Shown here one piece after another: positions 8,391 through 24,826 of a stretch of DNA of 64,000 nucleotides. Under the pieces are notes generated by a model. It was given only the letters and a program-made list of their open reading frames with translations, did no database searches and was not told the DNA's origin. This DNA is from Alkalispirochaeta sp. (lineage in GTDB: Bacteria; Spirochaetota; Spirochaetia; DSM-27196; Alkalispirochaetaceae). The first letter of the stretch is position 1, and every line of letters begins with the position of its first letter. The translations under genes and the position numbers were made by a program. The stretch is taken from the NCBI GenBank assembly GCA_965601925.1, contig OZ271854.1:1120001-1184000 (forward strand), in the 5' to 3' direction.

Positions 8391-8556
8391 GATCTTCAAG
8401 CTACCATATCATAGGACAACGTGCAGCGATCGACCGAACCGTCGAGGACGTTCAGACCGACCCGGACGCATCTGGATGCGTTCCTCAGGGCGTCGCCCCT
8501 CCGGTACGCATCCGCGCCGAGCAACAGCCGAAGGCTGTGACCAGCCCCGATATTGC

Positions 8557-8587
8557 GGCTCTTGCAAAATTGCATTTTACAAGAGCC
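8557..8587. repeat. 31-bp imperfect inverted repeat in divergent intergenic region
   Basis: GGCTCTTG-C-AAAAT-TGC-ATTTT-A-CAAGAGCC. Confidence 0.75.
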
Positions 8588-8636
8588 TCTCCAAAAAACG
8601 TTAGTAAAACCGACGAGAGTGCGTATCATATTGTGT

Positions 8637-9959
8637 ATGTTAAAACGAATTTGGCGGGGTTACGCTACCAGCGGGTACGGGGAGGCGCTGCCTCTCGGCG
8701 AACTGGAGAAAGTCATGTTCGTCAACACGTTTTCTATTATCGGAAACGTGAGCCTTCTGGCCTTTAGCGGATTTCACGCGCTTCGGAGCAACTACCTCTT
8801 CGCCGTCATCGAGCTCTCTTTTTTTGCGATCGGGCTGCTCAACATCATTGCATTACGCAAAACACGCAATGCGGATCTCGCAAGCTCGATCATTCTTTTT
8901 TTCATGATTGGAGTACTTGTGTTTCTCTACGCTACGGGAGGTACCGGAAACACGGGATTTCTGTGGTACTTCACCTACCCGCTACTGGCCTTTTTCCTCA
9001 AAGGAAAGAAACACGGAACTTTGTGGCTCCTCGCATTGGTCGGCACTACCCTCATGGTGTTTCTACTGCAGCGTACGGGTGTCGTGCCGTTTCAGGCGTA
9101 CTCAACGTTGGAGACGGCGGTGCTGACCATCACGATCCTCGTCGTCGCCTCACTGACGGCCTTCTACGCCAACGTACAAGACAGACTCGAGGAAGTGAGG
9201 GCGATGCGCGAGGGCGAGCGCTTGCAGGCCCGAATAATGGAGAGTCAGCTCGATGTGGCAAGAGGATTCCAACGGGTACTCCTGCCCGCCCAAGACATCG
9301 CCTATGAGGACGTATCCGTGTCGGCAGCGTATCGGACCGTGGGGAAGGTGGGGGGAGACTATTTCGATTTTGTGCCCATCGACGAGAATCGCATTGCCGT
9401 CATCCTGTGCGATGTGTCGGGTCACGGTGTACCCGCCGCGCTTGGGATGGTGAACATCAGAGCGATATTCCGCACACTACTGAAAAAAGATGTGCGGTCG
9501 CCGGCACAGATCATGAGAGAAATCAACAACACACTTGTCGGTGAACTGCAGGATGACTACTTCATAACTTCCTTTTTCTTCATATATGACAGAGAGCGTC
9601 GAGAGGTTATCTACTGCAATGCCGGACAGCCGCCCGCAATCCACTACTCCGACGGCACGCTATCGGAAATCACGTCCGTGGCGCTGCCGCTCGGCGTTAC
9701 GCCGGAGAATCCGTATCGTGACAAAACGATGGCGCTCCGGCGCGGCGATCTTTTCATCATCTATACCGACGGAATCGTGGAGGCGATGAACGAAGCCCGC
9801 GACGCATACGGACCGAAGCGGCTGTTTCGTACGATAGCAAAGAGCCGCCACCAAACTGCAACCCAGATTAACGAAGCCGTCATCGACGATGTAGATGTCT
9901 TCCTCAACGACCATCGAATGAGCGACGACATTTCGATCGTGACTCTCAAGGTGGAGTAG
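8637..9959 (+). CDS. Membrane-bound SpoIIE/PP2C-family (RsbU-like) phosphatase
   Basis: About 6 N-terminal TM helices; VGGDYFD, DVSGHGVPAA, YTDGIVEA, DDISIV motifs. Confidence 0.92.
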   Translation: MLKRIWRGYATSGYGEALPLGELEKVMFVNTFSIIGNVSLLAFSGFHALRSNYLFAVIELSFFAIGLLNIIALRKTRNADLASSIILFFMIGVLVFLYATGGTGNTGFLWYFTYPLLAFFLKGKKHGTLWLLALVGTTLMVFLLQRTGVVPFQAYSTLETAVLTITILVVASLTAFYANVQDRLEEVRAMREGERLQARIMESQLDVARGFQRVLLPAQDIAYEDVSVSAAYRTVGKVGGDYFDFVPIDENRIAVILCDVSGHGVPAALGMVNIRAIFRTLLKKDVRSPAQIMREINNTLVGELQDDYFITSFFFIYDRERREVIYCNAGQPPAIHYSDGTLSEITSVALPLGVTPENPYRDKTMALRRGDLFIIYTDGIVEAMNEARDAYGPKRLFRTIAKSRHQTATQINEAVIDDVDVFLNDHRMSDDISIVTLKVE

Positions 9960-10236
9960 AGCTACGGTCATTCGGGACGCGCGCCGGACCGGTTGTAACC
10001 GTCGAGACGCCGTCTCGTCGAAGACGTCGGCGACCCGGAGCTCGACCTAACGGATCGCCTACACGAGCGCGTGCTATGTTCGATTGATCGCGTTCTACTC
10101 TGAACGCCTCCGCAGGCCTTGCGCCCCTTCCTCTTTCAAAGCGTACTCTCTCGGCCTTGTTCCGCGTCGGCCACCGGGCCATCGAGAAGCAACCGAAGCG
10201 GTCAAAACGCCGAAGAACGGCAAAAAACCATCATAT

Positions 10237-10280
10237 TTCAACAATTAATTATTGATAAACAGTAATTATTATGATACATT
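10237..10280 (+). promoter_or_regulatory. Sigma70-type promoter with operator-like AT-rich motif overlapping the -35
   Basis: TTGATA(10252-57)-17bp-TACATT(10275-80) with TGn extension; ATTAATTATTGATAAACA resembles the motif at 13184-13213. Confidence 0.7.
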
Positions 10281-10329
10281 GGGCTCCGAACAACGGTGCG
10301 GTCGCCGCTCCGTTATAGGGAGAAAAGCC

Positions 10330-12237
10330 GTGAAACGAATCTATACGAAGACACTGTTGCTACTCGCTCTAGGAGGCTCGCTCTTCGGTGCGCCGCGAGA
10401 GATAGATGAAATCCTAAGGCCCCTTCGCCGGCGATATGACATGCCCGGTGTCGCGGCCGCCGTCGTGGTCGGCGACCGGATTGTCGCGTCGGGGGCCGTG
10501 GGAGTTCGAAAAGAGGGCAGCGGAGTTTCGGTCACCGTCGACGACGCGTGGCAAATAGGCTCCTGCGTCAAGTCGATGACCGCCACGGTCGCCGGGCGCC
10601 TTGTCGAACGGGGCGTCATTCGGTGGGAGACGACGCTTTTTGAGAGCTTCGGGCACCTCGTCGACCTCCATCCGGACTACGTCGACGTCACCCTGGATCA
10701 GCTTCTCTCCCATTCCGCCGGCGTGCCCGACGACCCGACCCTGGAGCAGGACCAGGAGGGTGACCCCTACGACGAGTTGGTCCTTTCCGGAATCCCGCTG
10801 ACCGAGCAGCGATTCCTCTTTGCCCGGAATGTGTTGTCCCGGCCCCCTCAGGCGACACCCGGTACCAAGATGATCTACTCGAATGCGGGCTATATCATCG
10901 CCGGCGCCATGCTGGAAGGGGCTACCGGCAAGAGTTGGGAGGCGCTGATGGAGGAGGAGCTCTTCGAACCCCTCGGCATGCACTCCGCCGGATTCGGCGC
11001 ACCGGCGACTCCGGGGCGCGTCGACGGACCGTGGGCACACGGACCGTGGAACGGGCCGATCGACCCGAGGGAGAACCTTTTCGATCAGGCGCTCATCATC
11101 GGCCCCGCAGGCCACGTCCACTGCTCCATCGAGGACTTCGCGCGCTACGCCACGGTACACCTGCACGGCGAACCTCGAGCGACCAACGGCGGAGAGTACC
11201 TTACGCCGGAGACCTTCCGAAAGCTTCACGCCGCCATGATAGAGGTCTCGAGACTCACCGGAACCGACTACGCTCTCGGGTGGGGCAACGGGGAGCACCG
11301 GGAGCTGGGGCCCTATTTGATACACACCGGAAGTAACGGCGTCTTCTACGCCGCTATGGTGCTTCTACCGGAGCGCAACGGTGCGATCGTCGCCGCAACG
11401 AACAGCCTGCGCGAAGAGGGAGTTCACCGCGCCATATTTGAGCTGGGTCGTGAGTACCTGGAGGAGCCTGTCGACATTCTTCCGGTCCAACCGACTTGGT
11501 CGTTGACCGTCGGCGCCGGCGGCGGCCTCGGTCCGACCTATGCCGGCGCCGGTGAGACGGGTGTAGACTTCCTCCCGCTCCTGGATCTGGAGTACCGTCG
11601 CCACCGTTTCGGCGCCTTCGTCGGTTTGACACACGGGCTCGGTGTCACCTTCAGAGAGGAGCGGCTTGCCGGACTCGAGATCGCCGTCGGTGTCGATCTT
11701 GTCGAGGGACGCGACCCCAACGAGGCCCCCACAAAGGAGCTCTTGGAGGGTACCCCGACCCTCGAAAGCAACGGTGAGCTCTTCGCCTCGGTGGGATTTA
11801 CCTTCGAGCTCTTTGCACTCTCTTCGACCGTTAGCCTCGCAACAATCGACGCCGACTACGACGAAGCGGATCGCCGGGACGCGCGATACGACAGCGTCTG
11901 CGTCGATTTCGATGTGACGACCGCTCTTCCCTTTACCGAGAGCCTCTTTTTGACTGCGGCTCTCGGCACGACCTGGATGAACGGCGACCATGCAGAGGCG
12001 TTGTACGGGGTGCTCTACACCACCGATAGGCTTGACCTCTTCGACGCCGACGGGGGATTTGAGACGATCCACGGCAGCTTGGGACTCGTCTCTCTCTTTA
12101 CTCCACGCCTCGGTTTGGTCGTGGAGGCGGAGTTTACGTACCCCCTCGACAGCGCAGCCGACAGCCCGATCACGGAGCGGCCGTTCTACCCCGGGATCGG
12201 CGCCACCCTCTTCTACCAATGGAGGTCCCGTGGATAG
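10330..12237 (+). CDS. Secreted beta-lactamase-fold serine hydrolase fused to a C-terminal MipA/OmpV-like outer-membrane barrel
   Basis: Signal peptide; SxxK (GSCVKS), LLSHSAG, YSN and HTG motifs; from about WSLTVGAGGGLGPTYAGA onward, alternating beta-strands typical of MipA/OmpV. Confidence 0.82.
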   Translation: MKRIYTKTLLLLALGGSLFGAPREIDEILRPLRRRYDMPGVAAAVVVGDRIVASGAVGVRKEGSGVSVTVDDAWQIGSCVKSMTATVAGRLVERGVIRWETTLFESFGHLVDLHPDYVDVTLDQLLSHSAGVPDDPTLEQDQEGDPYDELVLSGIPLTEQRFLFARNVLSRPPQATPGTKMIYSNAGYIIAGAMLEGATGKSWEALMEEELFEPLGMHSAGFGAPATPGRVDGPWAHGPWNGPIDPRENLFDQALIIGPAGHVHCSIEDFARYATVHLHGEPRATNGGEYLTPETFRKLHAAMIEVSRLTGTDYALGWGNGEHRELGPYLIHTGSNGVFYAAMVLLPERNGAIVAATNSLREEGVHRAIFELGREYLEEPVDILPVQPTWSLTVGAGGGLGPTYAGAGETGVDFLPLLDLEYRRHRFGAFVGLTHGLGVTFREERLAGLEIAVGVDLVEGRDPNEAPTKELLEGTPTLESNGELFASVGFTFELFALSSTVSLATIDADYDEADRRDARYDSVCVDFDVTTALPFTESLFLTAALGTTWMNGDHAEALYGVLYTTDRLDLFDADGGFETIHGSLGLVSLFTPRLGLVVEAEFTYPLDSAADSPITERPFYPGIGATLFYQWRSRG

Positions 12238-13207
12238 GAGAGTGCGAGGGGACGTCCTGGAAACGATCCTGAAGCTGCTTGTCCTAACGGCTTTGCTTGT
12301 CGCTCCGCCGCTACTCCTAACCGCCGAAGCGGAACCGGAGGGAGCGCATAGCTGGTCGTTAAGCGCACGGCGCGGTGTCACTCTTGTCGCCGCCGCGGCG
12401 TGGGCGCTGGTCGTGAGACGCCGATCGGTCCGTCGTGCCACATATCTCGCGGTCATGGGCGGGGCGGCCCTCGTATTTCTTACGACGAGTGAGGAGCTCT
12501 TCGGCCGGAGACTCTTTGCCGTGCCGGCCGCACGTTCCATCGACCACCTGCTCATTGGCGGCGGGTTGTTGACCGCTACGATCGGACTACTGCTCGCCCT
12601 TCGGGAGCTACGCGGCGCCGTCGAGGGACTCACCGAACGCGCGGACGAGTATCGCAGGCAGAGTATCACCGACAACTTGACCGGCCTCTACAACGGCCGC
12701 TACCTCTTTCAAATAATCAACGGCGAGGTACGGCGCGCCGAGCGATATCGCAGGGCGCTCTCGCTCCTTCTCGTAGACATCGACGATTTCAAATCGTTCA
12801 ACGACACCTACGGCCACCTCGCGGGGGATCGATTATTGGAGGCCGCCGGCGCGGTACTCCAAGGCGCGTGCCGAGCAAACGATATGGCCTTTCGGCTGGG
12901 CGGCGAAGAGTTCATCATTCTGCTGCCGGAAACCACGCTCCGCGAGGCTTCGGTGATCGCCGACCGTGTGCGAAAGGTGATGGAAGGGGTATCGCTCACT
13001 CTCCCGAGCGGCGAGGTCGTCGGGCGGACGGCAAGCGTCGGGGCCTCCACCCTGGGAGAGGCGATACGATCGGCCGACGACCTCATTGCCCAGGCGGACT
13101 CGGCGATGTATCGGGCAAAGGCCATGGGTAAGAATCGCGTCTCCACGGCCGGGTCTATCAATATACGAAACGACGGAAAATACTGTTTATCATTAATTAA
13201 TGATTGA
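12230..13207 (+). CDS. Membrane-anchored diguanylate cyclase (GGDEF)
   Basis: About 4 TM; TDNLTGLYN, DIDDFKSFNDTYGHLAGD, RxxD I-site (RAND), GGEEF; GTG after GGAGG overlapping upstream stop. Confidence 0.92.
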   Translation: MDRRVRGDVLETILKLLVLTALLVAPPLLLTAEAEPEGAHSWSLSARRGVTLVAAAAWALVVRRRSVRRATYLAVMGGAALVFLTTSEELFGRRLFAVPAARSIDHLLIGGGLLTATIGLLLALRELRGAVEGLTERADEYRRQSITDNLTGLYNGRYLFQIINGEVRRAERYRRALSLLLVDIDDFKSFNDTYGHLAGDRLLEAAGAVLQGACRANDMAFRLGGEEFIILLPETTLREASVIADRVRKVMEGVSLTLPSGEVVGRTASVGASTLGEAIRSADDLIAQADSAMYRAKAMGKNRVSTAGSINIRNDGKYCLSLIND

Positions 13208-13232
13208 TAAACAACAACATACATGCTATGGT
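13184..13232 (+). promoter_or_regulatory. Palindromic operator plus sigma70 promoter of the DUF2975-HTH operon
   Basis: TGTTTATCA-N12-TGATAAACA inverted repeat overlapping the perfect palindrome ATCATTAATTAATGAT; TTGATA(13204-09)-17bp-TATGGT(13227-32) with TGn extension. Confidence 0.8.
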
Positions 13233-13262
13233 GAGCGTAGTTACTCGCCGGAGGAGTTTGTC

Positions 13263-13796
13263 ATGAGCAACATTGAAAGAATTCAAAAAATGAGTCGCGT
13301 ATTTAAGTACTTCTTCCTCGCCCTCTTTGGTCTGTTGCCGCTTTTGGCCCTCGCGTTCTGGCTCTTTTATAACGCGTTGCCCGGACCGCTGAAGGGCGCC
13401 GGCGCCCTTGAGGTCGCGGACCACCTTTCATTCAGGCTGCGCGCCCTGGGATTCGTCGCCACCTCCCTCGATATGGGCATCGGCATGGCGACACTCTGGA
13501 CCCTCATGCGCCTCTTCGCCCTCTATGAGGAGGGTCGAATCTTTACCTCGTCGAACGTCACGCTCTATCGTAGGCTCGGCTGGCTCCTCATACTCGGTGT
13601 CGGCAGCAACGTTCTCACCATCGCTCTCTACACACTTATCGTAACGACGCCCGATCCCCAGGGCCTGAGCGCGATCGAGGCGGCCTTCGGCTCCATCGAC
13701 GTCGCGGCCCTCGTTATCGGATTGATCGTTCTGCTGATCTCGGCGGTGATGAAGGTGGGCGCCGAGCTCCAAGAGGACCGGGACCTCACGGTCTAA
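13263..13796 (+). CDS. DUF2975 (YoaS-like) membrane protein
   Basis: 4 TM; LF--YEEG-IFT--NV and C-terminal G-ELQED-DLTV; GGAGGAG RBS. Confidence 0.9.
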   Translation: MSNIERIQKMSRVFKYFFLALFGLLPLLALAFWLFYNALPGPLKGAGALEVADHLSFRLRALGFVATSLDMGIGMATLWTLMRLFALYEEGRIFTSSNVTLYRRLGWLLILGVGSNVLTIALYTLIVTTPDPQGLSAIEAAFGSIDVAALVIGLIVLLISAVMKVGAELQEDRDLTV

Positions 13797-13806
13797 CGGG
13801 GTTGTC

Positions 13807-14046
13807 ATGGCAATAGTAGTCAATTTGGACGTGATGTTGGCCAAGCGAAAGATGAAGTCCAACCGGCTTGCCGAGTTGGTCGGCATCACCGAACAGAACC
13901 TCTCCATCCTCAAGACGGGAAAGGCTCGGGCGATTCGTTTCTCCACCCTGGAGGCGATATGCCGCCACCTGGAGTGCCAGCCCGGGGACATCCTGGAGTA
14001 CCGGCGGGAGAGCGACGAATCGGCGGACGATACAGGAGCACCGTAA
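13807..14046 (+). CDS. XRE/Cro-CI HTH regulator, YozG family
   Basis: MAIVVNLDVMLAKRKM...NLSILKTGKARAIRFSTLEAIC--L-CQPGDILEY. Confidence 0.95.
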   Translation: MAIVVNLDVMLAKRKMKSNRLAELVGITEQNLSILKTGKARAIRFSTLEAICRHLECQPGDILEYRRESDESADDTGAP

Positions 14047-14047
14047 C

Positions 14048-14737
14048 ATGGCTGTTATCGAGTTGAATGGAGTAACCAAGGACTACCCTCTTGGCGACAC
14101 CACCGTCCACGCCCTGAAGGGTGTAGATCTCTCCATTGAGGCGGGGGAGTTTCTCTCCGTCGTCGGACCCTCGGGCAGCGGGAAGACGACGCTGCTTAAT
14201 ATCATCGGGTGCATCGACCGTGCGACCTCCGGTAACGTCGCTATTCACGGGACCGATGTCACTACGATGAGCGACCGGGACCTCACCGACCTCAGGCTTC
14301 GCCGCATCGGCTTCATCTTCCAGACCTTCAATCTCATCCCGGTGCTCTCCCTCGTGGAGAACGTCGAGTTTCCCCTCCTTCTCATGAAGGGGGAGCGTTT
14401 ATCAAAGCGGGAGATCAGGCGGCGGGCCGAGGAGCTGATCGAGGAGGTCGGCCTGGCGGAGCAGCAAAAGCAGCGTCCGCACGAGCTCTCAGGCGGTCAG
14501 CGCCAGAGGGTCGCCATCGCCCGAGCGCTCGTTACCAAGCCGGACATCGTTCTTGCCGACGAGCCGACGGCAAACCTCGACTCCGCCACCGGGGAGCGCA
14601 TCCTCAAGCTCATGAAGCGTCTCAACGAGCGGGAGCGGACCACCTTTCTCTTCTCCACACACGACCCTGAGGTACTGCGGTACGCCGGTCACGTACTCGG
14701 GGTGCGGGACGGTCTCTTAACGCAAGGGGCCGCGTGA
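14048..14737 (+). CDS. ABC ATP-binding protein (LolD/MacB-like)
   Basis: GPSGSGKTT, IGFIFQTFNL, LSGGQRQRVAIARAL, ADEPTANLDS. Confidence 0.94.
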   Translation: MAVIELNGVTKDYPLGDTTVHALKGVDLSIEAGEFLSVVGPSGSGKTTLLNIIGCIDRATSGNVAIHGTDVTTMSDRDLTDLRLRRIGFIFQTFNLIPVLSLVENVEFPLLLMKGERLSKREIRRRAEELIEEVGLAEQQKQRPHELSGGQRQRVAIARALVTKPDIVLADEPTANLDSATGERILKLMKRLNERERTTFLFSTHDPEVLRYAGHVLGVRDGLLTQGAA

Positions 14738-16311
14738 TGTTGACGCTCAAGCTGGCTACCCGGAACCTCCTGCGCCATCGGGGACGGAGCCTCGTGATCG
14801 GATCCATCCTCTTCTTGGGCGCTCTCCTCATGATCGTTGGGAGCAGCGTTGTGGCCGGCGCTCGGGTCGGGCTGGAAGAGAACGTGGTGGAGCGCTTCAC
14901 CGGCCACCTCGTACTGGTATCGCCGCATCAGCGAGAGAGGAGCGTCTTCTTCTCCGAACGGACCCTCCGGATGATTCCCGACTATCCCGCAGTCGCACAG
15001 GTGCTCGGCGGCCTCGACTTCTTGGAGGGCTATCTGCCGATGATGCGGGGAACGGCCCTCGTCTTAAGCGAAAACAGCCCCACCGAACCGATACTCGCCT
15101 TCGGTGTCAACTTCCAGGACTACCAAGAACGCTTCGGTCACAACGTCGTCGCCATAGAGGGTCGGCTTCTGGAAAACGGTGAACGGGGCTTCCTCCTCTC
15201 CGAGGCGACGCGGCAAAGAATTCTCGAGAACCACAACGTCTGGATGGCGCCCGAGGGGGCGACTTCGGTGGTGCACGGCAGCGACGATGCTTCAGTACCG
15301 ACGGCGACGACACTCGGGGAGCGTGCCGGGACAGACCGCATTCCCCGCGGCCCGTCGGCGCCGGGCGGTGCAATCCCGGTTGTCAACGAGCTGGTGCTGA
15401 TGGGGCTCTCCAGCGACTCCCTGGAATCGGATATCCGGCTAACGGTTACCGGCATCGTGCGTTTCGAACGAATGGACACCCTCTGGGAAGGGGTCAGCTT
15501 CATGGATATCGAGTCCTACCGCGAGTGCTTCGGCCACGTGACCGCCGCCGCCCGGTCGATGGAGCTTACCGATACTCAGACGACGCTTCTCGGGGCCGCC
15601 GCGCCGGAGGATCTCTTCGGCGGAAGTCTCATTATGGAGAGTCCGGCCACGGCGGAGGAGTACAGGGAGGGCGCATTGCGCGCTCAGACGGAGCGCAGCG
15701 ACCGGCCTCTCGATCTGGACGACGGCGCCTGGGGGCTGATATCGGTACGCCTCCGAGAGGGACTCTCTGTGGAGGAGGGGCGGGCGCTCCTCAGGGAACG
15801 GCTTAATCGAGCAGGTATCGATCTCCAGGTGCTGCCATGGAGCGACGCGGCCGAAGAGGTAGCGCGTTTCGCCCTCATCACCCAGAACGCTCTTTCGGCC
15901 TTCATCTTCTGCCTCTTCCTCGTGGCGGCAATCGTTATCATGAACACCCTCTCCATGGCTGCTGCGGAGCGTACGACCGAGATCGGTACCATCCGGGCGA
16001 TCGGTGGAAGAAGGGGGTTTGTCGGCCGACTCTTCCTCGCCGAGACCTCCCTGCTCGCCGCGCTCTTCGGTGGCGGCGGCATGGTCGTCGGTTCGGTCCT
16101 CATGCTGATCCTCGCCCGTCTCGGCATCGACACCACCACGACGCCGATGACGACCCTCCTCTTCGGCGGCGACACCTTTCGACCCGTCGTGGGCGGCGAT
16201 CAGTTGGCCGCGGGAGCGCTCAGGCTGGCATTGGTCACGATCGTCGCCATGATCTATCCGGTCGTGCTGGCCCGGCGCGTCACGCCTTTGGACGCCGTTG
16301 CACGAGATTAG
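14734..16311 (+). CDS. FtsX/LolE-type ABC permease
   Basis: LATRNLLRH--RS, large periplasmic domain, ERTTEIGTIRAIG, 4-TM topology. Confidence 0.9.
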   Translation: MMLTLKLATRNLLRHRGRSLVIGSILFLGALLMIVGSSVVAGARVGLEENVVERFTGHLVLVSPHQRERSVFFSERTLRMIPDYPAVAQVLGGLDFLEGYLPMMRGTALVLSENSPTEPILAFGVNFQDYQERFGHNVVAIEGRLLENGERGFLLSEATRQRILENHNVWMAPEGATSVVHGSDDASVPTATTLGERAGTDRIPRGPSAPGGAIPVVNELVLMGLSSDSLESDIRLTVTGIVRFERMDTLWEGVSFMDIESYRECFGHVTAAARSMELTDTQTTLLGAAAPEDLFGGSLIMESPATAEEYREGALRAQTERSDRPLDLDDGAWGLISVRLREGLSVEEGRALLRERLNRAGIDLQVLPWSDAAEEVARFALITQNALSAFIFCLFLVAAIVIMNTLSMAAAERTTEIGTIRAIGGRRGFVGRLFLAETSLLAALFGGGGMVVGSVLMLILARLGIDTTTTPMTTLLFGGDTFRPVVGGDQLAAGALRLALVTIVAMIYPVVLARRVTPLDAVARD

Positions 16312-16320
16312 GAGCGAGCT

Positions 16321-17655
16321 ATGAATCCGGTATCGACCATTGGGCTACGAAATCTGACACGACAGAAACGACGCAACCTCTTTCTCGGCGCCGGCATCGC
16401 CATCGGGATGGCACTGCTCGTCCTCTCCGGAGCCTTTACCCGCGGTATCTCGGACATCCTCCTCAACCGTATCGTGGTCAAGATCGCCGGCCATCTGGTG
16501 ATCTCATCCGTCGAACGGTCCGAGGGGAGAGAGGATCTCGCCATCCTGCGGAATAGAACCGAGATCGAACGGATCGCGCGCTTCTCCCTATACAATGTGC
16601 GGGAGGTTCGGGAACAAATCCTCCTCTCCGGCCGTGCCTTGGGCAACGGCCGCGCCGAGTCGGTGGCAATCGTCGGTACGGACCCCTTCGGCAGCCTCAT
16701 CCGGGAGGCGGAGGTGGTGGAGGGAAGCGTCGATCAGATGGCGAGTGCTACCTGGGAGAACCCGGTTGTGCTCTACGAAGAGATGGCCGAGGATCTGGCG
16801 GTCGGCCTCTTGGACGTGATCCGCGTACGCTTCTCCACAGTCTACGGCCAGGCCCAGACCGCACGGTTCACCGTCGTTGCCGTTATCGAATCGACCAACC
16901 CTTTCTTGGACCTGGCGATCTACGCGCCCATAGACGTTCTGCGCCCCTTGGCGGGCTTCGAGGCCGACGAGACCCAGGCGCTGAGCGTCGTCCTGGATCG
17001 CGTCCGCCATCCGCGGGAGGTCTCGGCCGCGGCCGATCGTATCCACTCCGCTCTGAGCCGCCACCCGGAGGAGTCCGTCGGTCGGCTTCTCGAGCGTACC
17101 GCCACACCGGAGGAGTTAGCGCAGAAACATCGCAGTCTCGACGGTTCCGCGTGGCGGGGCAGAGTGACCGACGTCAACTCCATTTACGAGATCGCCGGGG
17201 AGCTGCTCCAGATCGAACGAGTCTTGGACAGAGTCTCCTTGGTCGCGGTCGGCCTGCTCCTCGTCATCGTGCTTATCGGCGTGGTGAACACCCTACGTAT
17301 GACCATCCGTGAACGGACCCGGGAGATCGGCACACTGCGGGCGATCGGGATGCAGCGGGCCGACCTGCTGCGGAGCTTTGTTGTCGAGATCCTGGCCCTC
17401 ACGCTTGTTGCGGGAGTCGCCGGAGCGATAGCCGCCCATCTCGCTATGGCCCTCCTCGGGCGTATCGCGGTGGCTGCAGCCGAAAGCACCTTATCGGTCT
17501 TTCTGGTTGACGACCGTCTTCACTTCGTGCCGACGGCCTCGGACATCGTAAAGAACCTCGCGATCGTTGTAGTCGCCTGCTTTCCCGCGGCCTATTTCCC
17601 GGCCCGGCGCGCCGCGCGACTCTCGGTGACCGCAGCCTTGGGCCACCACGAATAA
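16321..17655 (+). CDS. FtsX/LolC-E-type ABC permease
   Basis: RNLTRQKRR, ERTREIGTLRAIGM, PARRAARL motifs. Confidence 0.9.
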   Translation: MNPVSTIGLRNLTRQKRRNLFLGAGIAIGMALLVLSGAFTRGISDILLNRIVVKIAGHLVISSVERSEGREDLAILRNRTEIERIARFSLYNVREVREQILLSGRALGNGRAESVAIVGTDPFGSLIREAEVVEGSVDQMASATWENPVVLYEEMAEDLAVGLLDVIRVRFSTVYGQAQTARFTVVAVIESTNPFLDLAIYAPIDVLRPLAGFEADETQALSVVLDRVRHPREVSAAADRIHSALSRHPEESVGRLLERTATPEELAQKHRSLDGSAWRGRVTDVNSIYEIAGELLQIERVLDRVSLVAVGLLLVIVLIGVVNTLRMTIRERTREIGTLRAIGMQRADLLRSFVVEILALTLVAGVAGAIAAHLAMALLGRIAVAAAESTLSVFLVDDRLHFVPTASDIVKNLAIVVVACFPAAYFPARRAARLSVTAALGHHE

Positions 17656-17665
17656 GGAGATATCA

Positions 17666-18463
17666 ATGAAGAAAACACCTTTGAACGCACTCATTCGAGT
17701 ACTGTCGCTTCTCGCCGCCCTCGGCGGCGTCGCGGTGAACCGCGTCGACGCCGATCCGTCCGTCAACGACATCTTGAGTCGCATGGACCGGCAGTACGAC
17801 ATCCGAAGCGACCTGACGGTTCGGATGAGCCTCACCGAACAGAGGCCCGAGGAGGGTGTCCGGCTCTTCGAGGGCATCTACTACCGCCGAGACAGCGACG
17901 ACGCCTTTCTGCTGGTGATGGTTGAACCCGAGGCGGAGCGGGGCAACGGCTACCTCAGGGTCGGCGAGAATATGTGGCTCTACCGGCGAAACACCCGCAC
18001 CTTTCAGATCATGCACCGCGATCAGGCGATCGGCGGCACCGGCGCCAACGCCGAGGATTTCGAGAAGCGCAAGATGACCGAGCTCTACGAGCCGATTCTC
18101 GACGACTCGGGAGGGGAGCTTATCCGAGAGGAGACCCTCGGCCGGGCGCAGATTCCCGTCTACCGCCTCGAGATCCGGGCGTCGGTACGCGACGTCGAGT
18201 ACCCGCGACTCGTTCTCTGGGTACGAAGAGACAACTTCCTTCTCCTCAAGGAGGAGGCCTACTCCCTCTCGGGCACCCTCATGGAGACGAGTTATTACCC
18301 GCGCTACACCGAAGTGGAGGGGAGTTATATCCCCCTTCAGATGGTCTTCGTCGACGAGTTCGACGTGGGTGAACGGACCGTCGTAGAGCTCTCCGGAGTC
18401 TCTCTCGAAGCGATTGACGACGCGGTCTTTACCACCGCCTACCTCGAGAGCCTGAGCAAGTAG
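17666..18463 (+). CDS. Outer-membrane lipoprotein-sorting protein (LolA-like)
   Basis: Signal peptide; P--ERG-GYL---NMWLY, G-GANAEDF, YP---LWV----F-----EAY--SG. Confidence 0.85.
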   Translation: MKKTPLNALIRVLSLLAALGGVAVNRVDADPSVNDILSRMDRQYDIRSDLTVRMSLTEQRPEEGVRLFEGIYYRRDSDDAFLLVMVEPEAERGNGYLRVGENMWLYRRNTRTFQIMHRDQAIGGTGANAEDFEKRKMTELYEPILDDSGGELIREETLGRAQIPVYRLEIRASVRDVEYPRLVLWVRRDNFLLLKEEAYSLSGTLMETSYYPRYTEVEGSYIPLQMVFVDEFDVGERTVVELSGVSLEAIDDAVFTTAYLESLSK

Positions 18464-19858
18464 GTGAGAGGGATGGAGAGAGCGCAAAGGGTCGCACCGG
18501 TATGGGCTTTGTGGATCCTCTGGACCCCCATCATCATCTCGGCCCAGGAGATCTCCTTCGATGAGGATGAGCTCTTCTCCGAGCCTGGGAGCACCGTAGA
18601 GCTGGAAGAACAACCGGTACGGGAGATCACCGAAGCGTTGCGGGAGGAGTCGATCTCCTTCTCCGGTGGGATCTCCGCGGCGACCGGGATGGATCTTACC
18701 CGAAAAGCGGTCGACGGCTCCGAGAACCTCGCCCAAAGCCCCTACTCGGCGACGGTGGAGTGGGACCTCCTTTTGGATATTCGTACCGGCGGCGACACAA
18801 AGGCGTTTGCCGACCTGCTGGTCCTCTCGACGCCGATACGTGACGGCGCTGCAGGGTCCGACGGCACGGGAGACGGCTCAGACGCCGATGCGCCGTCCGT
18901 CGTGAGTACCTCGGCCGAAAGCTTCGAGTTGGACCTGCGGGAGGCCTTCGTCGACCTAAACATCGCTCGCCGAGTCTTTTTCAAGTTCGGCAAGCAGACC
19001 CTGAAATGGGGACCGGCCTACTTCTGGAACCCGACCGACCTTGTCAGCGAAGATCGCCGAGAGCTTACCGACTTGGACGGGCGGCGGGAGGGAACATTCG
19101 GACTCAAGGCGCACATACCCTTCGGTACACGGTTTAACCTCTTTGGATTTATCAATGCCGACGGCGCCGAGGAAGTCGGTGAGATCGCCTTGGCAGGTAG
19201 AGCCCAGCTCCTCATTGCCCAACGGGTGGAAGCGGGTCTCTCGGGCTGGTACCGGGAACGTTCACTGCCGGTCTACGGCCTCGATCTTCGTACTCGCCTG
19301 CGGGAGATCGATCTCTGGGGGGAGATGAGCCTCTCCTATGGGGACAACCGCCCGCGTCTCGAGGTCGGCGAGGAGGATGTTATGGGGACACCGACTCCCA
19401 TCTTCGATGAGCGACGGGTGCGAGAAGAGTGGGTCTCCCGGGCGAGTGTCGGTATCGGTCGCAGCTTCGATATCGGTGATGTCAACGACCGCCTCCGCCT
19501 TATCGGGGAGTTCTTCTACAACGGAGGGGGATACACCGAGGATCTCTTCGAAGATGAAGCGACCCGCCTGGCGTTCCTTGGCGGCGACTTCTACGAGCCC
19601 GGATTCTACGGCCGGTACTACGTAGGGCTCTTCTCCGGCTATCGTAGGTTTTTCCACCCCGATATGACGCTCGTCTTCAACGGGGTCGGTAACCTTACCG
19701 ACCGCTCCTTCGCCCTCTCGGCCGGCATCGACTACGAGATCGTCGCAAACGCCTCGGTAGGCCTGCGCGTCGACGGCTATTTGGGAGAGGAGAACCGGGA
19801 GTATACGGCGGCAGGGAGCGTGGCGAGGGTTACCGCCACGGTCAATCTCTCGTACTAA
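18464..19858 (+). CDS. Putative outer-membrane beta-barrel protein
   Basis: Signal-like N-terminus; LREAFVD---GKQ---WG-AYFWNPTD motif; amphipathic C-terminal strand RVTATVNLSY. Start may be ATG 18473. Confidence 0.72.
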   Translation: MRGMERAQRVAPVWALWILWTPIIISAQEISFDEDELFSEPGSTVELEEQPVREITEALREESISFSGGISAATGMDLTRKAVDGSENLAQSPYSATVEWDLLLDIRTGGDTKAFADLLVLSTPIRDGAAGSDGTGDGSDADAPSVVSTSAESFELDLREAFVDLNIARRVFFKFGKQTLKWGPAYFWNPTDLVSEDRRELTDLDGRREGTFGLKAHIPFGTRFNLFGFINADGAEEVGEIALAGRAQLLIAQRVEAGLSGWYRERSLPVYGLDLRTRLREIDLWGEMSLSYGDNRPRLEVGEEDVMGTPTPIFDERRVREEWVSRASVGIGRSFDIGDVNDRLRLIGEFFYNGGGYTEDLFEDEATRLAFLGGDFYEPGFYGRYYVGLFSGYRRFFHPDMTLVFNGVGNLTDRSFALSAGIDYEIVANASVGLRVDGYLGEENREYTAAGSVARVTATVNLSY

Positions 19859-19877
19859 GGATAAAGGAGACCGGAAC

Positions 19878-20990
19878 ATGGAAAGAGGAACAATGGAATC
19901 GATCGGAGGAGCAATCGCCCCCGGTTCAGATAGAGCGCAACCCGGACGAATACTCTACCTCGATCTCGCCCGAGGGCTGGCGGTACTTTTCATGGTGCTT
20001 CAGCACGTGCAAATCGTCTACGGCCGCGGCGGCGGCGAGGAGACCCTCATCGGCGTCGCATCGCTTCTCTTGGGTACCGCTCCGGCGGCGCCGGTCTTCA
20101 TGCTTATCATGGGCCTCTTCTTTGCCAACTCCCGGCGCGCGGGGCTGCGAACCGGCGTGGTCCGAGGCGTCAGGCTCTTCCTTTTCGGCTACCTACTCAA
20201 CGTCCTCCGCTTTACCCTTCCCGGCCTGGTCACCGGGGGACGCGGCGGGATTTATGAGGAGTGGGGAACTCCGTGGGAGCTCTTTCTCTCGGTGGACATC
20301 TTCCATCTGGCAGGTCTCTCCCTTATCGGCCTGGGAGTGGTTAAACGCTTCCTCCCGTGGCGATGGGCACGTATGGCGCTTGCCGTAGCCATTCTGGTCG
20401 CTTCCCCGTTTCTTTGGGGCGCCGGCGGCGATTCGATTTTACTCTCGTCTCTCTGGGGCGTCTGGGAGAACGTCTACTTCCCCCTCTTTCCGTGGTTCGT
20501 CTATCCCGTCTGTGGAATGATTCTGGCCGATTTTCTGCCCGGAAAGATAGGAGACACCGGTGGGACCGGCGACGGAGCGCGAGTCCGCTTGCTTCGCAGA
20601 TGGGGATGGGCGCTCCTCGGCGTCGGCCTGCTCTCGCTCCTGCTGCCGGACCGGGGCGTCTTTGTGATCGGCGACTACTTTCGAAGCGGTGCCGGAGTGC
20701 ACGTCGCTATCCTCGGCTTTGTGCTGCTCTGGCTTCTCCTCTGCAGGCGAATCGCTCGGCAAGCCCCGACGGCGGCTCCACTGCGACTTGCCTACTCTTG
20801 GAGCCGGTGGGTCACCGAAATCTACACCGCTCAGTGGGTCATTATCGGTTGGGGCGCCCTCGTAATCGGCTATGCGACCTTGCCGGAACAGGTCGCCTTC
20901 GTCGTAGGATTGGTAATACTGGCGATGAGTCACGGCCTCGCCATCGGCTACGGGGCCGTACGGGGTCGCTTGCGAAGGACCACCGTGTAA
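19878..20990 (+). CDS. HGSNAT/DUF1624-family membrane acyltransferase-like protein
   Basis: RILYLDLARGLAVLFMVLQH, APVFM, DIFHLAG, YFPLFPW motifs; about 10 TM. Confidence 0.82.
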   Translation: MERGTMESIGGAIAPGSDRAQPGRILYLDLARGLAVLFMVLQHVQIVYGRGGGEETLIGVASLLLGTAPAAPVFMLIMGLFFANSRRAGLRTGVVRGVRLFLFGYLLNVLRFTLPGLVTGGRGGIYEEWGTPWELFLSVDIFHLAGLSLIGLGVVKRFLPWRWARMALAVAILVASPFLWGAGGDSILLSSLWGVWENVYFPLFPWFVYPVCGMILADFLPGKIGDTGGTGDGARVRLLRRWGWALLGVGLLSLLLPDRGVFVIGDYFRSGAGVHVAILGFVLLWLLLCRRIARQAPTAAPLRLAYSWSRWVTEIYTAQWVIIGWGALVIGYATLPEQVAFVVGLVILAMSHGLAIGYGAVRGRLRRTTV

Positions 20991-21724
20991 TGAACCGCTT
21001 CCACCTCCTCTTGGCGGCGCCCCTCTTCTGCTCCGTTTTGACGCTCTCCGTCGCCGAGCCGCCGGCCACTGCAGCTCCGGAGACTGCGGTTGCCCCTCTC
21101 TGGCGGCTCGCGGTGGCGATCGCAGAAGAGAATCGATTCTGGGTACCCGGGGAGATTCACACGCTAACCGAGGAGGCGGGGCGCCGGGGCACTACGGACA
21201 CCGCCACGGAGTTCGTAACCCGGCTGCTTCTTTTGGAAGACGGCGACATTCGGGAGGAGACCTTTCGAATCGTCGACAGCCGCGAGGTACCCTACGTCGA
21301 AGAGCACGGCGAGGAGGATTGGACAGGCGAGCCGTGGGAAGGCGTCGATTTTTGGAATCCGACCGTTCAGGAGCGGATCGAGGTCACCGGCGTCGGCGAT
21401 ATCACCACAGTGGTAGGGAGGCGCTGCCTTCCCCACGCATTTGTCTACCGCAACGAGGAAGAGGGGTTCACGATGCGCGGCACCGCCTGGCTCGATGAGA
21501 CCACCGGCACGCCGACTCTTGCGGAGTATACCGACGAGCCGCTCCCCCGGGGTGTCTCCGAGATGAGTACCGTCGTCACCTACTACGCCGCACGCGACGC
21601 GTGGTATCCCCGATCGGTGACGGTCGAAGGTGTCGCCCAGGTGCTTTTCATCAAGAGAGACTTCCGCATCGAAATGAACTTCCGCGACTACTGGGAGTAT
21701 CCGACCGGGGGCGACGCGCGGTAG
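20990..21724 (+). CDS. Exported hypothetical protein, possibly LolA/LppX-like fold
   Basis: Signal peptide MNRFHLLLAAPLFCSVLTLSVA; GRRC...GTAWLDETTGTP motif; TAATG coupling. Confidence 0.6.
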   Translation: MNRFHLLLAAPLFCSVLTLSVAEPPATAAPETAVAPLWRLAVAIAEENRFWVPGEIHTLTEEAGRRGTTDTATEFVTRLLLLEDGDIREETFRIVDSREVPYVEEHGEEDWTGEPWEGVDFWNPTVQERIEVTGVGDITTVVGRRCLPHAFVYRNEEEGFTMRGTAWLDETTGTPTLAEYTDEPLPRGVSEMSTVVTYYAARDAWYPRSVTVEGVAQVLFIKRDFRIEMNFRDYWEYPTGGDAR

Positions 21725-21752
21725 CGGCGACCGATGCGTCGACGTCGCCGGC

Positions 21753-21781
21753 CGAGGGCGAGGGCGAGGGCGAGGGCGAGG
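21753..21781. repeat. Hexamer microsatellite (CGAGGG) x about 4.8
   Basis: cgagggcgagggcgagggcgagggcgagg in intergenic DNA. Confidence 0.9.
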
Positions 21782-21875
21782 CACGCGAACGGCCGTCCAT
21801 TCGGTGTGAAAAAAGCAACTTTTGCATGGTCCGGGACGGCATGAGCCGGTACGATACCATATTGGAGGCGTCCAC

Positions 21876-22373
21876 GTGAGCAAATACAACACCAAACAGG
21901 AGCTTGTCGACGACATCGTCAAGGAGCGAGCCAAACTCGATACTCTGCTGACGGCTATCCCGGAGAGCCGCAAAACCGATGAGGTGACTGACGGAATGAG
22001 CGTGAAAGACTTTCTCGCCCATCGGACCGAATGGGGTCGCATGATGATTCGTTGGTACACCAAGGCCAAAGGGGGAGTCACACCGGCCGTTCCGTCGGAA
22101 AAGTACAAGTGGAATCAACTCAAGGGACTCAACGCCGAGATCTACGAGCAATTCAAAGACGTGCCGCTCGAAGAGATAACGGAACAGTACAACGCGGTAC
22201 ACGACGAGCTCTTTGCACTGATTCAGACGACCACGGACGAGGAGCTATTCTCCAAGAAGTACTACGCGTTTACCGGCACCTCGGATTTGGCGTCCTACTT
22301 CAACTCGGCAACCGTAGCGCATTACAGGTCTGCGGCAAAGTACATCCGCGCATGGTGGAAAACTCAGACGTAG
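21876..22373 (+). CDS. ClbS/DfsB family four-helix-bundle protein (DUF1706)
   Basis: KDFLAH--EW, P---YKWNQL--LN--IY, T-AHY--A-K-IR-W; GGAGG RBS before GTG. Confidence 0.85.
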   Translation: MSKYNTKQELVDDIVKERAKLDTLLTAIPESRKTDEVTDGMSVKDFLAHRTEWGRMMIRWYTKAKGGVTPAVPSEKYKWNQLKGLNAEIYEQFKDVPLEEITEQYNAVHDELFALIQTTTDEELFSKKYYAFTGTSDLASYFNSATVAHYRSAAKYIRAWWKTQT

Positions 22374-22573
22374 TCGACGGTCGACGCCGGGGTGGGACCG
22401 GGTGCGAGGCGGTAGCGAGCCTCGCCTACGATCGAAGTTTTTGAACGCGCTGCACGGCGCTACGCGCCTCGAGCGCTCTCCCGCTCAGACGGCGAGTGTA
22501 GCTCGCCTCGAAGCAGCTCTCCGCACGACTCCCGGCGTGCCGGCGAGGTGACGGTGACGGCCTCGCCCGCCGC

Positions 22574-23893
22574 TTATCCGGCCGCCGCGTCCGGCCGGCC
22601 GTCTTCGGCGTAGTACGTCGATAATCTACCGTACGCGCGTGAACGCATCGCCCCCAGCGTCACCACCAACCCTATCGCGCCCGCTACGATGAAGATTAAC
22701 GCCATCCCCCGTACGGGCCCGGTACCGAACCAGGGGCCGATCGAGTCCGCTCCGAAACCGGTGGTCATGAACGGAATCACCCAAAACTCGGCGACGGGCC
22801 CGATCAAAAAAGCCGTTATCGGCGAGGCGGCGGTCTCCACCGCCTGGGCAAACCCGAAGACGCGGCCCTGCACCTCAAACGGGACGACCTTCTGGATGAT
22901 CGTCTGTTCCGCCGCCTCGACCGCCGGGATGAGGCACATGTAGATAAGGAAACCGACGATGAGCAGCGGGATCGACGAGCGAATCGGGAAGAGTATCGTA
23001 ACGACCCACAGAACGATGTTCGAAACAAAGAGTACGCGTAGCGGAGAGCTCCCCAAACCGCGCCGTGCGACGACCAGCCCACCGACGATGAACCCGAAGC
23101 TCAGCGCGCCCCATATGATTCCCCACGCCTCGACGGTGACCAGCTCCAATCCGTACGGATCGACGAGGGACATGAAGATGCCGCCGAGAAAGTTATTGAA
23201 GGTCGAGAAGAAGATGAGACCGAAGAGTCCGGGCACGACGGCGATCGCCGCTGCCGCTCCTCTCACGTCGATCGCCGGCTCCTTCACCACGGACTCACGC
23301 TTCGGGGTATTCTCAGGTATAGAAACGGTCAACAGGTGAACGAACGCCGCCGCGATGAAGGCGACCGAGATGCCGAGAGCCCACAGCATGCCGAGGCGCC
23401 CGACGACCAAACCGCTGAAGACGGAGGTCACCGCAAAGGATACACCGTTTGCCGTACCGATGAGACCGTTGGCCCGGTCGTGCTCCGGCTCGGGAACCAA
23501 AAGCGTCACACAGGTCGATAGGGCGATCATACGCATGTTTCCGACGACCGCGCCGCATAAGATGATGACCACAAAGATCCAGAAACGGGGGCTTGCAAGC
23601 ACAAGAATGCTTCCCTCGGGGGAGACGAGAAACAGGAGCGTCGCCGCGCCGAACGCCGCGCAGGAGACGAGACTTGCGACGAGCATGACGAACTTCTTTT
23701 TGTGTCGATCGACAAAGGTACCGAAGACGAGGCCGGAGGCGGCGGATAACAACATAAACGAACCGCCGATGATCGACGTCGCCAGAACCGATCTGGTCTC
23801 CAAATACGCCCAGAAGGTGACGGCAAACCACAGAAAGTTCGTCGTGACGCTCGCGATTCCGGTGTTGATGAGGAGCCTATAGAACGGTTTCAC
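22574..23893 (-). CDS. MFS transporter (DHA3-like efflux), copy 1
   Basis: 12 TM; GTFVDRHKKK, QGRVFGFAQAVE; paralog at 40907-42244. Confidence 0.92.
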   Translation of the reverse strand: MKPFYRLLINTGIASVTTNFLWFAVTFWAYLETRSVLATSIIGGSFMLLSAASGLVFGTFVDRHKKKFVMLVASLVSCAAFGAATLLFLVSPEGSILVLASPRFWIFVVIILCGAVVGNMRMIALSTCVTLLVPEPEHDRANGLIGTANGVSFAVTSVFSGLVVGRLGMLWALGISVAFIAAAFVHLLTVSIPENTPKRESVVKEPAIDVRGAAAAIAVVPGLFGLIFFSTFNNFLGGIFMSLVDPYGLELVTVEAWGIIWGALSFGFIVGGLVVARRGLGSSPLRVLFVSNIVLWVVTILFPIRSSIPLLIVGFLIYMCLIPAVEAAEQTIIQKVVPFEVQGRVFGFAQAVETAASPITAFLIGPVAEFWVIPFMTTGFGADSIGPWFGTGPVRGMALIFIVAGAIGLVVTLGAMRSRAYGRLSTYYAEDGRPDAAAG

Positions 23894-23902
23894 GATCTCT
23901 CC

Positions 23903-24739
23903 TTAGTCGACGAACGCCGCACGGTGCTCCCACACCCATTGGGCGAATGTCCGAGCGGGTTTACCGGTAACCTCTTCTACCGTCGAGAGCACGACGTCCC
24001 CGGGGATCGGCGGATTCTCGATCATTGCAAGGAAGAAGTCGATATCCTCCGCGGACCAGCCGCCGCGACTCCACCTCAAGACCATCTCGTCTCGGGAGAG
24101 CTCGACAAACGATATCTCGCGACCGAGCACCTGCTTGAATATACGCACCTTATCGATCGGAGTGAGCGCCTGAGGACCGGTGAGCCGGTACTCGCTCCCA
24201 CCGTGGCCGCTCGAGGTTAGGACCGTCGCAGCGACCGATGCGATATCGGCCTCGTGGACGCACGCACTTTTTCCGTCGGCGAAACCCTCGCGTACCTCGC
24301 CCTCGCGTCTAATCGATTCGGCCCACTCCAACGAGTTGGCCATGAACTCCACGGGCGATAGGTAGGTCCACTCCACGCCGCTCGCCTCGACCGCGAGATC
24401 GAGCGGTGTCTTTTCCACCTCGCCTCGCAGGCGCGTCACCGTGCGTACGCCGGCTCTCTCCGCACATTCCATAATCGCGGGCCCGTTCGCGAGGGGCGCA
24501 TAGCCGTCTCCAAAGCCGATGAGGTGGGCCGCGGCCACTCCGTCAAAGACTCCGGCGATACTGTCCGTGTCGCCGAGGTTGCCTTGGACGACTTCAACCT
24601 CGGCGGGAAGATTCGCTCCGGCGGGGTCGCGTGTGAGAGCCCTGACCCGCCGGCCCGCCGCCAACAAGTAAGCGACAATGTGGCGACCGACCGTACCCGT
24701 GGCGCCGGTCACCAAGACAATCTCTGAATCGCGCTGCAT
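23903..24739 (-). CDS. NmrA-like NAD(P)H-binding protein
   Basis: VLVTGATGTVG, VRALTRDP, LTGPQALT, VTGKPARTFAQW. Confidence 0.9.
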   Translation of the reverse strand: MQRDSEIVLVTGATGTVGRHIVAYLLAAGRRVRALTRDPAGANLPAEVEVVQGNLGDTDSIAGVFDGVAAAHLIGFGDGYAPLANGPAIMECAERAGVRTVTRLRGEVEKTPLDLAVEASGVEWTYLSPVEFMANSLEWAESIRREGEVREGFADGKSACVHEADIASVAATVLTSSGHGGSEYRLTGPQALTPIDKVRIFKQVLGREISFVELSRDEMVLRWSRGGWSAEDIDFFLAMIENPPIPGDVVLSTVEEVTGKPARTFAQWVWEHRAAFVD

Positions 24740-24826
24740 CTGTTCTCCTCCTCACAGAGTCACCACCACGCGCTACCGTGCCCACTCACGCGGCAGGCGC
24801 GCAATCTATGGAGAGAGGATACGGGC

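Follow-up and report, generated by a model that had tools for sequence, protein, structure and literature searches.

How greasy molecules cross the periplasm of diderm bacteria without LolB or TolC is the question raised by a run of eleven genes in Alkalispirochaeta sp. (assembly GCA_965601925.1, contig OZ271854.1, positions 1,120,001 to 1,184,000; this whole stretch of 64,000 nt is the window, and positions are those of the window unless given as genome positions). We found that the system consists of five genes, encoding an ABC ATPase, two permeases, a LolA-like carrier and an outer-membrane barrel, while the other six genes are a local addition in one genome. The carrier is predicted to be clamped to the barrel, and in this genome all eleven genes are likely co-regulated by a YozG-like repressor through a common operator.

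Layout of the eleven-gene run

An open reading frame (ORF) check of the window confirmed eleven co-oriented genes on the + strand (10330-21724), with successive intergenic gaps of -8, 55, 10, 1, -4, 9, 10, 9, 19 and -1 nt, in a host genome of 5.05 Mb and 60% GC, presumably that of a free-living spirochaete:

10330..12237, + strand: serine hydrolase (beta-lactamase fold) fused to a C-terminal MipA/OmpV barrel, likely signal peptide (Pfam, motifs)
12230..13207, + strand: membrane-anchored GGDEF protein (Pfam)
13263..13796, + strand: DUF2975 (YoaS-like) membrane protein (Pfam)
13807..14046, + strand: YozG-like HTH_26 repressor (Pfam)
14048..14737, + strand: core 1, MacB/LolD-type ABC ATPase (Pfam, NCBIfam)
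14734..16311, + strand: core 2, FtsX/MacB-type permease, 525 aa (Pfam)
16321..17655, + strand: core 3, second FtsX/MacB-type permease, 444 aa (Pfam)
17666..18463, + strand: core 4, PF17131 LolA-like periplasmic carrier, relative of NE2245 and Porphyromonas LolA3 (Pfam, profile comparison)
18473..19858, + strand: core 5, predicted 18-stranded outer-membrane barrel, DUF1302-related, with an acidic periplasmic N-terminal arm (model)
19878..20990, + strand: HGSNAT-like membrane acyltransferase family protein, accessory (Pfam)
20990..21724, + strand: second exported protein, predicted LolA-like fold, separate family, accessory (model)

Nine of the eleven ORFs scored above curated Pfam cut-offs, in the order Beta-lactamase and MipA (in a single ORF), GGDEF, DUF2975, HTH_26, ABC_tran, FtsX (twice), LolA_like PF17131 and HGSNAT_cat. 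The barrel gene and the last gene had no Pfam match at E 0.01, and their folds were assigned from predicted models instead. The eleven genes and family labels of a preliminary description of this DNA were thus borne out; position 10237, where its interval began, lies in the AT-rich promoter, outside any gene. Short-read contigs of the same sample cover 8526-25000 with 0 differences to the window, a check that draws on one sample and hence is not independent of the assembly; because these contigs agree fully, the hydrolase-MipA fusion and the gene junctions are not assembly errors. A short element of about twofold depth (8461-8555), probably repeated in the genome, breaks the short-read contigs.

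A five-gene core conserved across phyla

A barrel profile search of species genomes returned 270 relatives, and the counts for core conservation refer to the best 80 of these. The order ATPase-permease-permease-carrier-barrel was complete in 65/80 loci; among the remaining 15, 13 were cut by contig ends, one appears frameshifted (L115) and one was without two of the genes (L144). An apparent permease-carrier-barrel triple fusion in L115 looks like the product of frameshifts. The hosts span at least eight phyla and include Spirochaetota, Ca. Moduliflexota, Bacillota, Fibrobacterota, Thermodesulfobacteriota, Elusimicrobiota, Fusobacteriota and Ca. Firestonebacteria. Nineteen loci from the same order have the same core gene order, two of them cut short.

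The preliminary description treated all eleven genes as one system, and this did not hold when neighbourhoods were compared, as only the five-gene core is conserved. Specifically, DUF2975, HTH, hydrolase, MipA, acyltransferase and last gene were found at 0/80 core loci (tblastn, with profiles for three of them; at least 1 kb of upstream flank was available in 59 loci and at least 1.5 kb of downstream flank in 70), and the GGDEF matches at 6/80 are generic. Conversely, no core permease, carrier or barrel was found near the 80 closest of 580 YozG relatives (50 with at least 2 kb downstream) or at 19 own-phylum DUF2975 loci, a comparison that left out nine weak DUF2975 matches below the cut-off. 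An eleven-gene conserved system was therefore rejected (0/80, 0/80 and 0/19, respectively); failure to co-occur in other genomes, which the preliminary description named as grounds for abandoning its proposal, applies to the accessory genes, and the five core genes do co-occur.

In a quick tree of 84 carriers, that of the window groups with Ca. Moduliflexota (support 91), apart from the same-order copies (98), and a search of 16 same-genus genomes with the barrel as query did not recover this carrier clade. The tree hints at transfer. Vibrio and Aliiroseovarius plasmid records (L243, L244) carry a one-permease version of the module, with two-component genes directly after it.

Conservation of this kind could also reflect a side route of outer-membrane building, by which a native lipid, glycolipid or lipoprotein subset would reach the surface and which YozG would boost under envelope stress. 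We regard this as unlikely, if a serious alternative. Many relatives hold the core in housekeeping contexts, and a cofitness proposal (bioRxiv 072470) is in line with a native cargo. On the other side, no conserved cargo or biosynthetic gene was found beside the core (75 selected neighbours scanned), the genome has separate LolCDE-like and LolA genes, Porphyromonas LolA3, of known structure, binds LolB weakly (PMC13103446), and loss of Flavobacterium lolA3 left gliding, secretion and surface lipoproteins unaffected (PMC11885536).

The ABC pump is separate from the housekeeping Lol pathway

The pump belongs to the type VII (MacB-fold) ABC class, as it combines PF00005, two PF02687 domains, PF12704 (MacB_PCD) in permease 2 and the expected helix pattern, and both permeases fit the FtsX type, with a large periplasmic domain following the first helix. 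Permease 2 (16321-17655) has a clean in-frame gap that leaves about 140 fewer periplasmic residues than in its closest relatives (575-630 aa); the same-order copies are likewise short. No HlyD or OEP match was found in the eleven genes, and neither was conserved beside 99 core loci, so that the locus is without the fusion adaptor and TolC-type duct of MacAB-TolC systems.

Is the pump simply the housekeeping LolCDE-LolA lipoprotein pathway, as the preliminary description allowed? Its best NCBIfam matches are indeed LolD and LolC/E. All of them are far below cut-off (LolD 232.9 vs 307.75; LolC/E 44.5 and 50.4 vs 362.45), and at genome 202752-206015 an ATPase gene lies between two better LolC/E matches (188.8 and 133.4 bits). 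We note that no locus of this genome passed the TIGR02212 cut-off, another locus scoring 188.8. The single PF03548 LolA of the genome is at 2498037, the core carrier being PF17131 instead, and the absence of the carrier clade from the same-genus genomes searched also argues against a housekeeping role. We thus rejected this identity, which is barely conceivable given these scores and the separate Lol genes. The trans-envelope architecture of ATPase, permeases, carrier and barrel, also put forward in the preliminary description, is supported by the families and by the predicted carrier-barrel complex, and we consider it highly probable that the core is a trans-envelope module.

A predicted clamp between carrier and barrel

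The carrier belongs to the LolA superfamily by its profile matches to 3BUU (3e-35), 9TP6, 4Z48 (labelled DUF1329) and 3BK5. The barrel was modelled with 18 strands (pLDDT 73.9), and its best fold matches were ChiP (Z 22.4), OccD3 (Z 22.2) and AlgE (Z 21.1), which are tied within ~1 (rmsd 4.2-4.8 over ~305-320 residues). TamA matched the model at Z 11.8, compared with Z 20-22 for 18-stranded barrels; Omp85 barrels have 16 strands. No sequence relative of the barrel was found among solved structures. Its score against the DUF1302 profile was 14.5 bits (cut-off 23.2), 22/82 of its relatives match DUF1302 at E 0.05 (best 5e-8), and its protein-atlas link to a DUF1302 cluster is 0.95.

Complex prediction points to binding of carrier and barrel. 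The score was 0.80, against 0.01 for the best of three controls, and the runs gave 189-196 contacts with at least 94% agreement and partner pLDDT of at least 82; the score mark used is reached by 116/157 solved complexes and 2/215 mismatched pairs, counts that are only approximate with own alignments. The predicted interface involves barrel residues 30-68 and short turns on one barrel face, which the barrel model suggests to be periplasmic, and among others carrier residues 243-265. Of 82 relatives, 54 share an acidic motif in the arm of the barrel and 65 a C-terminal motif of the carrier. The carrier would close off the barrel at its periplasmic end, kept in place by the acidic N-terminal arm of the barrel and by its own C-terminal helix, and as the carrier is predicted to sit there, the module would work less as a free shuttle than as a bridge.

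The genome holds five PF17131 genes. Three accompany ABC pumps (one in the window, one in a polysaccharide locus and one after a GntR gene) and two accompany MMPL/RND pumps; by profile, the next gene encodes a barrel of the same family as that of the window in four cases and gave no match in the fifth. Because PF17131 genes pair with both pump types, carrier and barrel appear to behave as an outer module that takes either. Near genome 1541100-1546200 (L010:10589-14191, 9143-10582), a 1200-aa MMPL/RND pump has a PF17131 carrier fused at its C-terminus and is followed by a same-family barrel, which suggests a carrier tethered to its pump. At ~2394700-2407200 (L007:6733-19217), TetR-MMPL-carrier-barrel stands back-to-back with GntR-Band7-ATPase-permease-permease-carrier-putative barrel, and at ~1687400-1693300 (L006:7408-13302) a third ABC core, with the ATPase last, lies in a lower-GC polysaccharide locus. 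A further same-family barrel (E 6e-10; genome 1506188-1508011, L009:8186-9892) has no adjoining carrier or pump and adjoins a sugar ABC gene and a glycoside hydrolase-like gene.

The fold of the barrel also bears on the direction of transport. Characterised MacB-fold ABC systems extract or export, and we consider transport to be very probably outward. It is distinctly unlikely that the module works inward, with barrel and carrier admitting a hydrophobic nutrient (fatty ester, sterol or porphyrin) that the hydrolase would cleave for use. The best fold matches of the barrel, ChiP and OccD3, are uptake channels, and the exporter AlgE scores equally well within the tie. Pseudomonas putida requires DUF1302/DUF1329 genes for growth on fatty esters, on which the mutants are less fit (bioRxiv 2020.07.04.188060); in Porphyromonas and Prevotella, scarcity of iron or haem strongly raises the expression of TetR-MMPL-carrier operons (PMC10434189, PMC10470040); and one close relative of YozG stands at the head of an operon for a TonB-dependent receptor. 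Uptake is opposed by the proposal that the type VII ABC YbbAP extracts hydrophobic compounds (PMC12646458), and there are no catabolic genes in the operon.

Twin promoter-like sites and putative operators

What would place the core and its neighbours under one control? Two promoter-like sites and three putative operator sites were located:

10249..10265, unstranded: operator O1, TTATYG-N5-CRATAA type, over the P1 -35 box (matrix ranking)
10252..10280, + strand: promoter-like site P1, -35 TTGATA, 17 nt, extended -10 (promoter scan)
13180..13217, unstranded: operators O2a (13180-13196) and O2b (13201-13217), inverted repeat over the P2 -35 box (matrix ranking)
13204..13232, + strand: promoter-like site P2, -35 TTGATA, 17 nt, extended -10 (promoter scan)

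P1 and P2 sit within a common AT-rich element (21/24 nt identical) that has no third copy in the genome, and with a 30-mer at up to 8 mismatches only these two sites matched in 5.05 Mb. P2 overlaps the stop codon of the GGDEF gene, whose last codons run through it. Both O1 and O2 cover the -35 boxes, the position expected for repression.

The palindromic TTATYG-N5-CRATAA motif was taken from the upstream regions of DUF2975 genes in other genomes, after the window sites had been seen. It lies upstream of DUF2975 in 16/18 own-phylum loci and in 46/56 metagenome loci, compared with 122/1180 background windows. With two matrices trained without this genome, O1 (10249) came out at the top of the 5.05 Mb in three of four tests and in second place in the remaining one, and O2a with O2b formed the best or second-best site pair in the genome; single O2 sites ranked 9-54 with one matrix and, where listed, 6-224 with the other. 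The DUF2975 gene is the only one in the genome, and together with the repressor gene it qualifies as a YoaS-YozG pair (DUF2975 57.8 vs 27 bits, HTH_26 84.8 vs 22 bits, 10-nt gap); it also has the AT-rich inverted repeat of such modules upstream (13180-13217). Putative operators upstream of YoaS-YozG have been reported previously (bioRxiv 10.64898/2026.09.15.751765).

Downstream of P2, the promoter scan found no + strand promoter-like site between 13232 and 22600, and the stop codon of the HTH gene is 1 nt from the start of the ATPase gene; for both reasons P2 likely reads through the core. A terminator scan was at chance level (10 found, 10.2 expected). Based on the shared operator and the matrix ranks, co-regulation of the eleven genes, which the preliminary description had proposed without seeing this operator, is likely, and YozG probably controls both promoters, as an assembly of this one genome. 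The alternative is a chance pile-up, in which YozG would regulate no more than its own gene and the hydrolase-cyclase pair, the exporter being driven by a separate weak promoter. The parts were linked in no second genome, and what lies behind YozG differs greatly from locus to locus (examples are serine hydrolase, CAAX protease, DUF4386, zinc dehydrogenase, TonB receptor and DUF817). The 1-nt spacing differs from the 100-800 nt found before the ATPase in many relatives, and this, with the empty promoter scan, makes a pile-up very unlikely.

Within the own phylum, the YozG closest to that of the window (80% identical; L042:4477-10435) is followed by genes for a TonB-dependent receptor, two small lipoprotein-like proteins, ExbB, ExbD and TonB. 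In four further loci (L173, L209, L212, L236) DUF2975-YozG is followed by an O-antigen-ligase/TPR protein, with FecR in three and a CHASE2 cyclase in two.

The hydrolase-MipA fusion, other accessory genes and neighbours

The first gene scores 190.8 bits for PF00144 and 71.9 bits for PF06629, and the catalytic motifs of its hydrolase domain are intact (S78-x-x-K81, Y183-S-N, H332-T-G). Among 120 listed of 684 relatives, one other has both domains (P0016; 41% identity, 98% coverage). In 99 genomes of the order there were 13 further MipA matches, and no long ORF contained any of them. The MipA domain is acidic (38 D/E vs 15 K/R). By its sequence, the fusion looks like an active single-chain version of MipB-MipA, and from the short linker we infer a periplasmic placement of the hydrolase domain. 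MipA genes of this genome and its relatives (L012, L013, L266, L267, L268, L277) often adjoin alpha/beta hydrolases, serine hydrolases or CAAX proteases, and AraC or LuxR membrane regulators.

The GGDEF protein carries GGEEF at 224, preceded by RxxD; the c-di-GMP output that the preliminary description proposed for the locus is putative. The acyltransferase was not found in 60 relatives with the window query. The last protein was modelled at pLDDT 85.6, and its four best matches are all of the LolA superfamily, at a moderate level (Z 8.3-9.3, rmsd 4.3-5.2, ~180 aligned); its profile did not match that of the first carrier (probability 7.5%), and only 2/63 members of its family match PF17131. 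This family has 307 representatives and occurs in 24/400 other genomes of the phylum, with no core gene within ~1.5 kb in 19 loci inspected.

Beyond the run, the next ~23 kb (21822-45785) hold many genes of small-molecule stress or detoxification type (DUF1706, MFS, NmrA, AlkZ, AraC, MATE, YCII, ECF sigma, epoxide hydrolase, WYL, TfoX, SnoaL, AHSA1, glyoxalase, GyrI and DinB), and two related MFS genes stand ~17 kb apart (22574-23893 and 40907-42436). Tandem GAGGGC hexamers lie directly 3' of the last gene (21753-21781). Upstream of P1 there is a membrane PP2C phosphatase gene (MASE6-SpoIIE; 8637-9959), and at 1452-6191 an ABC-2 cluster with DUF7088 and DUF4340 proteins.

Proposed mechanism

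We tentatively read the locus, at somewhat less than even confidence, as a YozG-repressed, inducible device for removal of a foreign lipophilic or amphipathic compound through the clamped exporter. YozG would bind O1 and O2 and block both -35 boxes, and DUF2975, for which we infer a sensing role, may be its membrane partner and lift repression upon envelope disturbance. P1 would then make the hydrolase-MipA fusion and the cyclase, the hydrolase domain cleaving an ester or amide beneath its own MipA barrel, and P2 would make the regulator pair, the exporter, the acyltransferase and the second carrier. The ABC pump would extract the greasy molecule from the inner membrane, from where it would pass via the clamped carrier and be released at the barrel; hydrolysis and acylation would be local add-ons to this core. 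With regard to the cargo, we lean slightly towards a foreign compound, the detoxification-type genes of the adjoining 23 kb being counted in favour.

Several points weigh against this reading. The accessory genes never accompany the core elsewhere (0/80), so that the functional link is confined to one genome; regulators stand directly upstream of the core in only ~6/75 scanned neighbours, and in several relatives the core adjoins grpE or other housekeeping genes without a regulator, a better fit to a native cargo. The P. putida phenotype fits uptake. AT-rich sites score high in a 60% GC genome, and one unrelated site outranked O1 under one background. The carrier-barrel complex is a model score from own alignments, interface residues are barely more conserved than the rest (0.49 vs 0.42; 0.66 vs 0.62), and a DUF1302-DUF1329 complex had been predicted already (PMC13499233).

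Taken jointly, the parts could describe a distinct and widespread exporter class, an ATP-driven, fixed connection between the inner membrane and the cell surface. In it, a MacB-fold pump on one side and an 18-stranded barrel on the other would grip a LolA-like protein, with no adaptor, TolC or LolB, and in this genome the exporter would be combined with a catalytically active MipB-MipA fusion in a two-promoter YoaS/YozG regulon; we hold this joint claim to be doubtful. If it were true, DUF2975 would be a membrane sensor of envelope-active lipophiles, and the locus a direct reporter for its signal. For LolA3-type proteins the predicted clamp names a partner and a mutable interface, and the twin operators provide a defined regulon for the widespread YoaS/YozG pair. 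This value is limited by the eleven-gene arrangement being found in one genome. New here are the predicted clamp, the two-promoter regulon and the hydrolase-MipA fusion; already known are the prediction of the DUF1302-DUF1329 complex and the putative YoaS-YozG operators (preprint cited above).

Comparison with known systems

In the literature covered (few subscription papers, no supplements), we found no description of an operon with a two-permease ABC pump, PF17131 and an 18-strand barrel, nor of a hydrolase-MipA fusion. The core resembles LolCDE-LolA-LolB in its ATPase, two different FtsX-type permeases and LolA-fold carrier, but has an integral barrel in place of LolB, a PF17131 instead of a PF03548 carrier, scores below the Lol cut-offs, and separate Lol genes in the same genome. 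The nearest ABC version described is Borrelia BBJ23-29 (PMC13078400), where a type VII ABC, a LolA-like protein and an outer-membrane barrel have been proposed computationally to move a non-polar ligand. The BBJ system, however, relies on a single permease that forms a homodimer, on an Omp85-type barrel and on two TPR proteins, whereas the window has two permeases, 18 strands and no Omp85 or TPR match. In E. coli YbbAP-TesA (PMC12646458), a type VII ABC proposed for the extraction of hydrophobic compounds from the inner membrane likewise has a serine hydrolase nearby. YbbAP is proposed to extract for the hydrolase, and TesA docks on the pump. In the window, by contrast, the pump is succeeded by a carrier and a barrel, and the hydrolase forms one chain with a different barrel and is no part of the conserved core.

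The accessory genes have relatives of their own. Pseudomonas aeruginosa MipB and MipA co-purify and respond to polymyxin (PMC10936184), and they share with the fusion a beta-lactamase fold, a MipA barrel and an acidic MipA. MipB is without SxxK and is a separate lipoprotein with two extra C-terminal domains, whereas the window has one fused chain with SxxK/YxN/HxG intact, without lipobox or extra C-terminal domains, and no ParRS-type pair in the operon. Operons of YoaS-YozG (bioRxiv 10.64898/2026.09.15.751765) have the same gene pair with an AT-rich inverted repeat upstream; in the window there is, in addition, a second operator-promoter 3 kb upstream, and an exporter behind the pair that was unseen at 99 other loci examined.

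The closest tested parallel is with AmeABCD of Castellaniella defragrans, which provides inducible monoterpene tolerance and dye export (PMC6394551), and with the DUF1302/DUF1329/BNR/HAE3-RND cassettes (bioRxiv 072470; bioRxiv 2020.07.04.188060; PMC13499233). Both they and the window combine, in one operon, an inner-membrane pump, a LolA-superfamily periplasmic protein and an 18-stranded barrel, of DUF1302 type there and DUF1302-related in the window; a carrier-barrel complex is predicted in both, and the operon of the window would be inducible like theirs. The differences from AmeABCD are that the pump here is an ATP-driven MacB-fold ABC with two different permeases and not a proton-driven RND, that the operon has no MMPL or BNR match, that the barrel is below the DUF1302 cut-off and that the regulator is YoaS/YozG. 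By this analogy, the locus is best read as a putative ABC-powered counterpart of the AmeABCD lipophile exporter under YoaS/YozG control.

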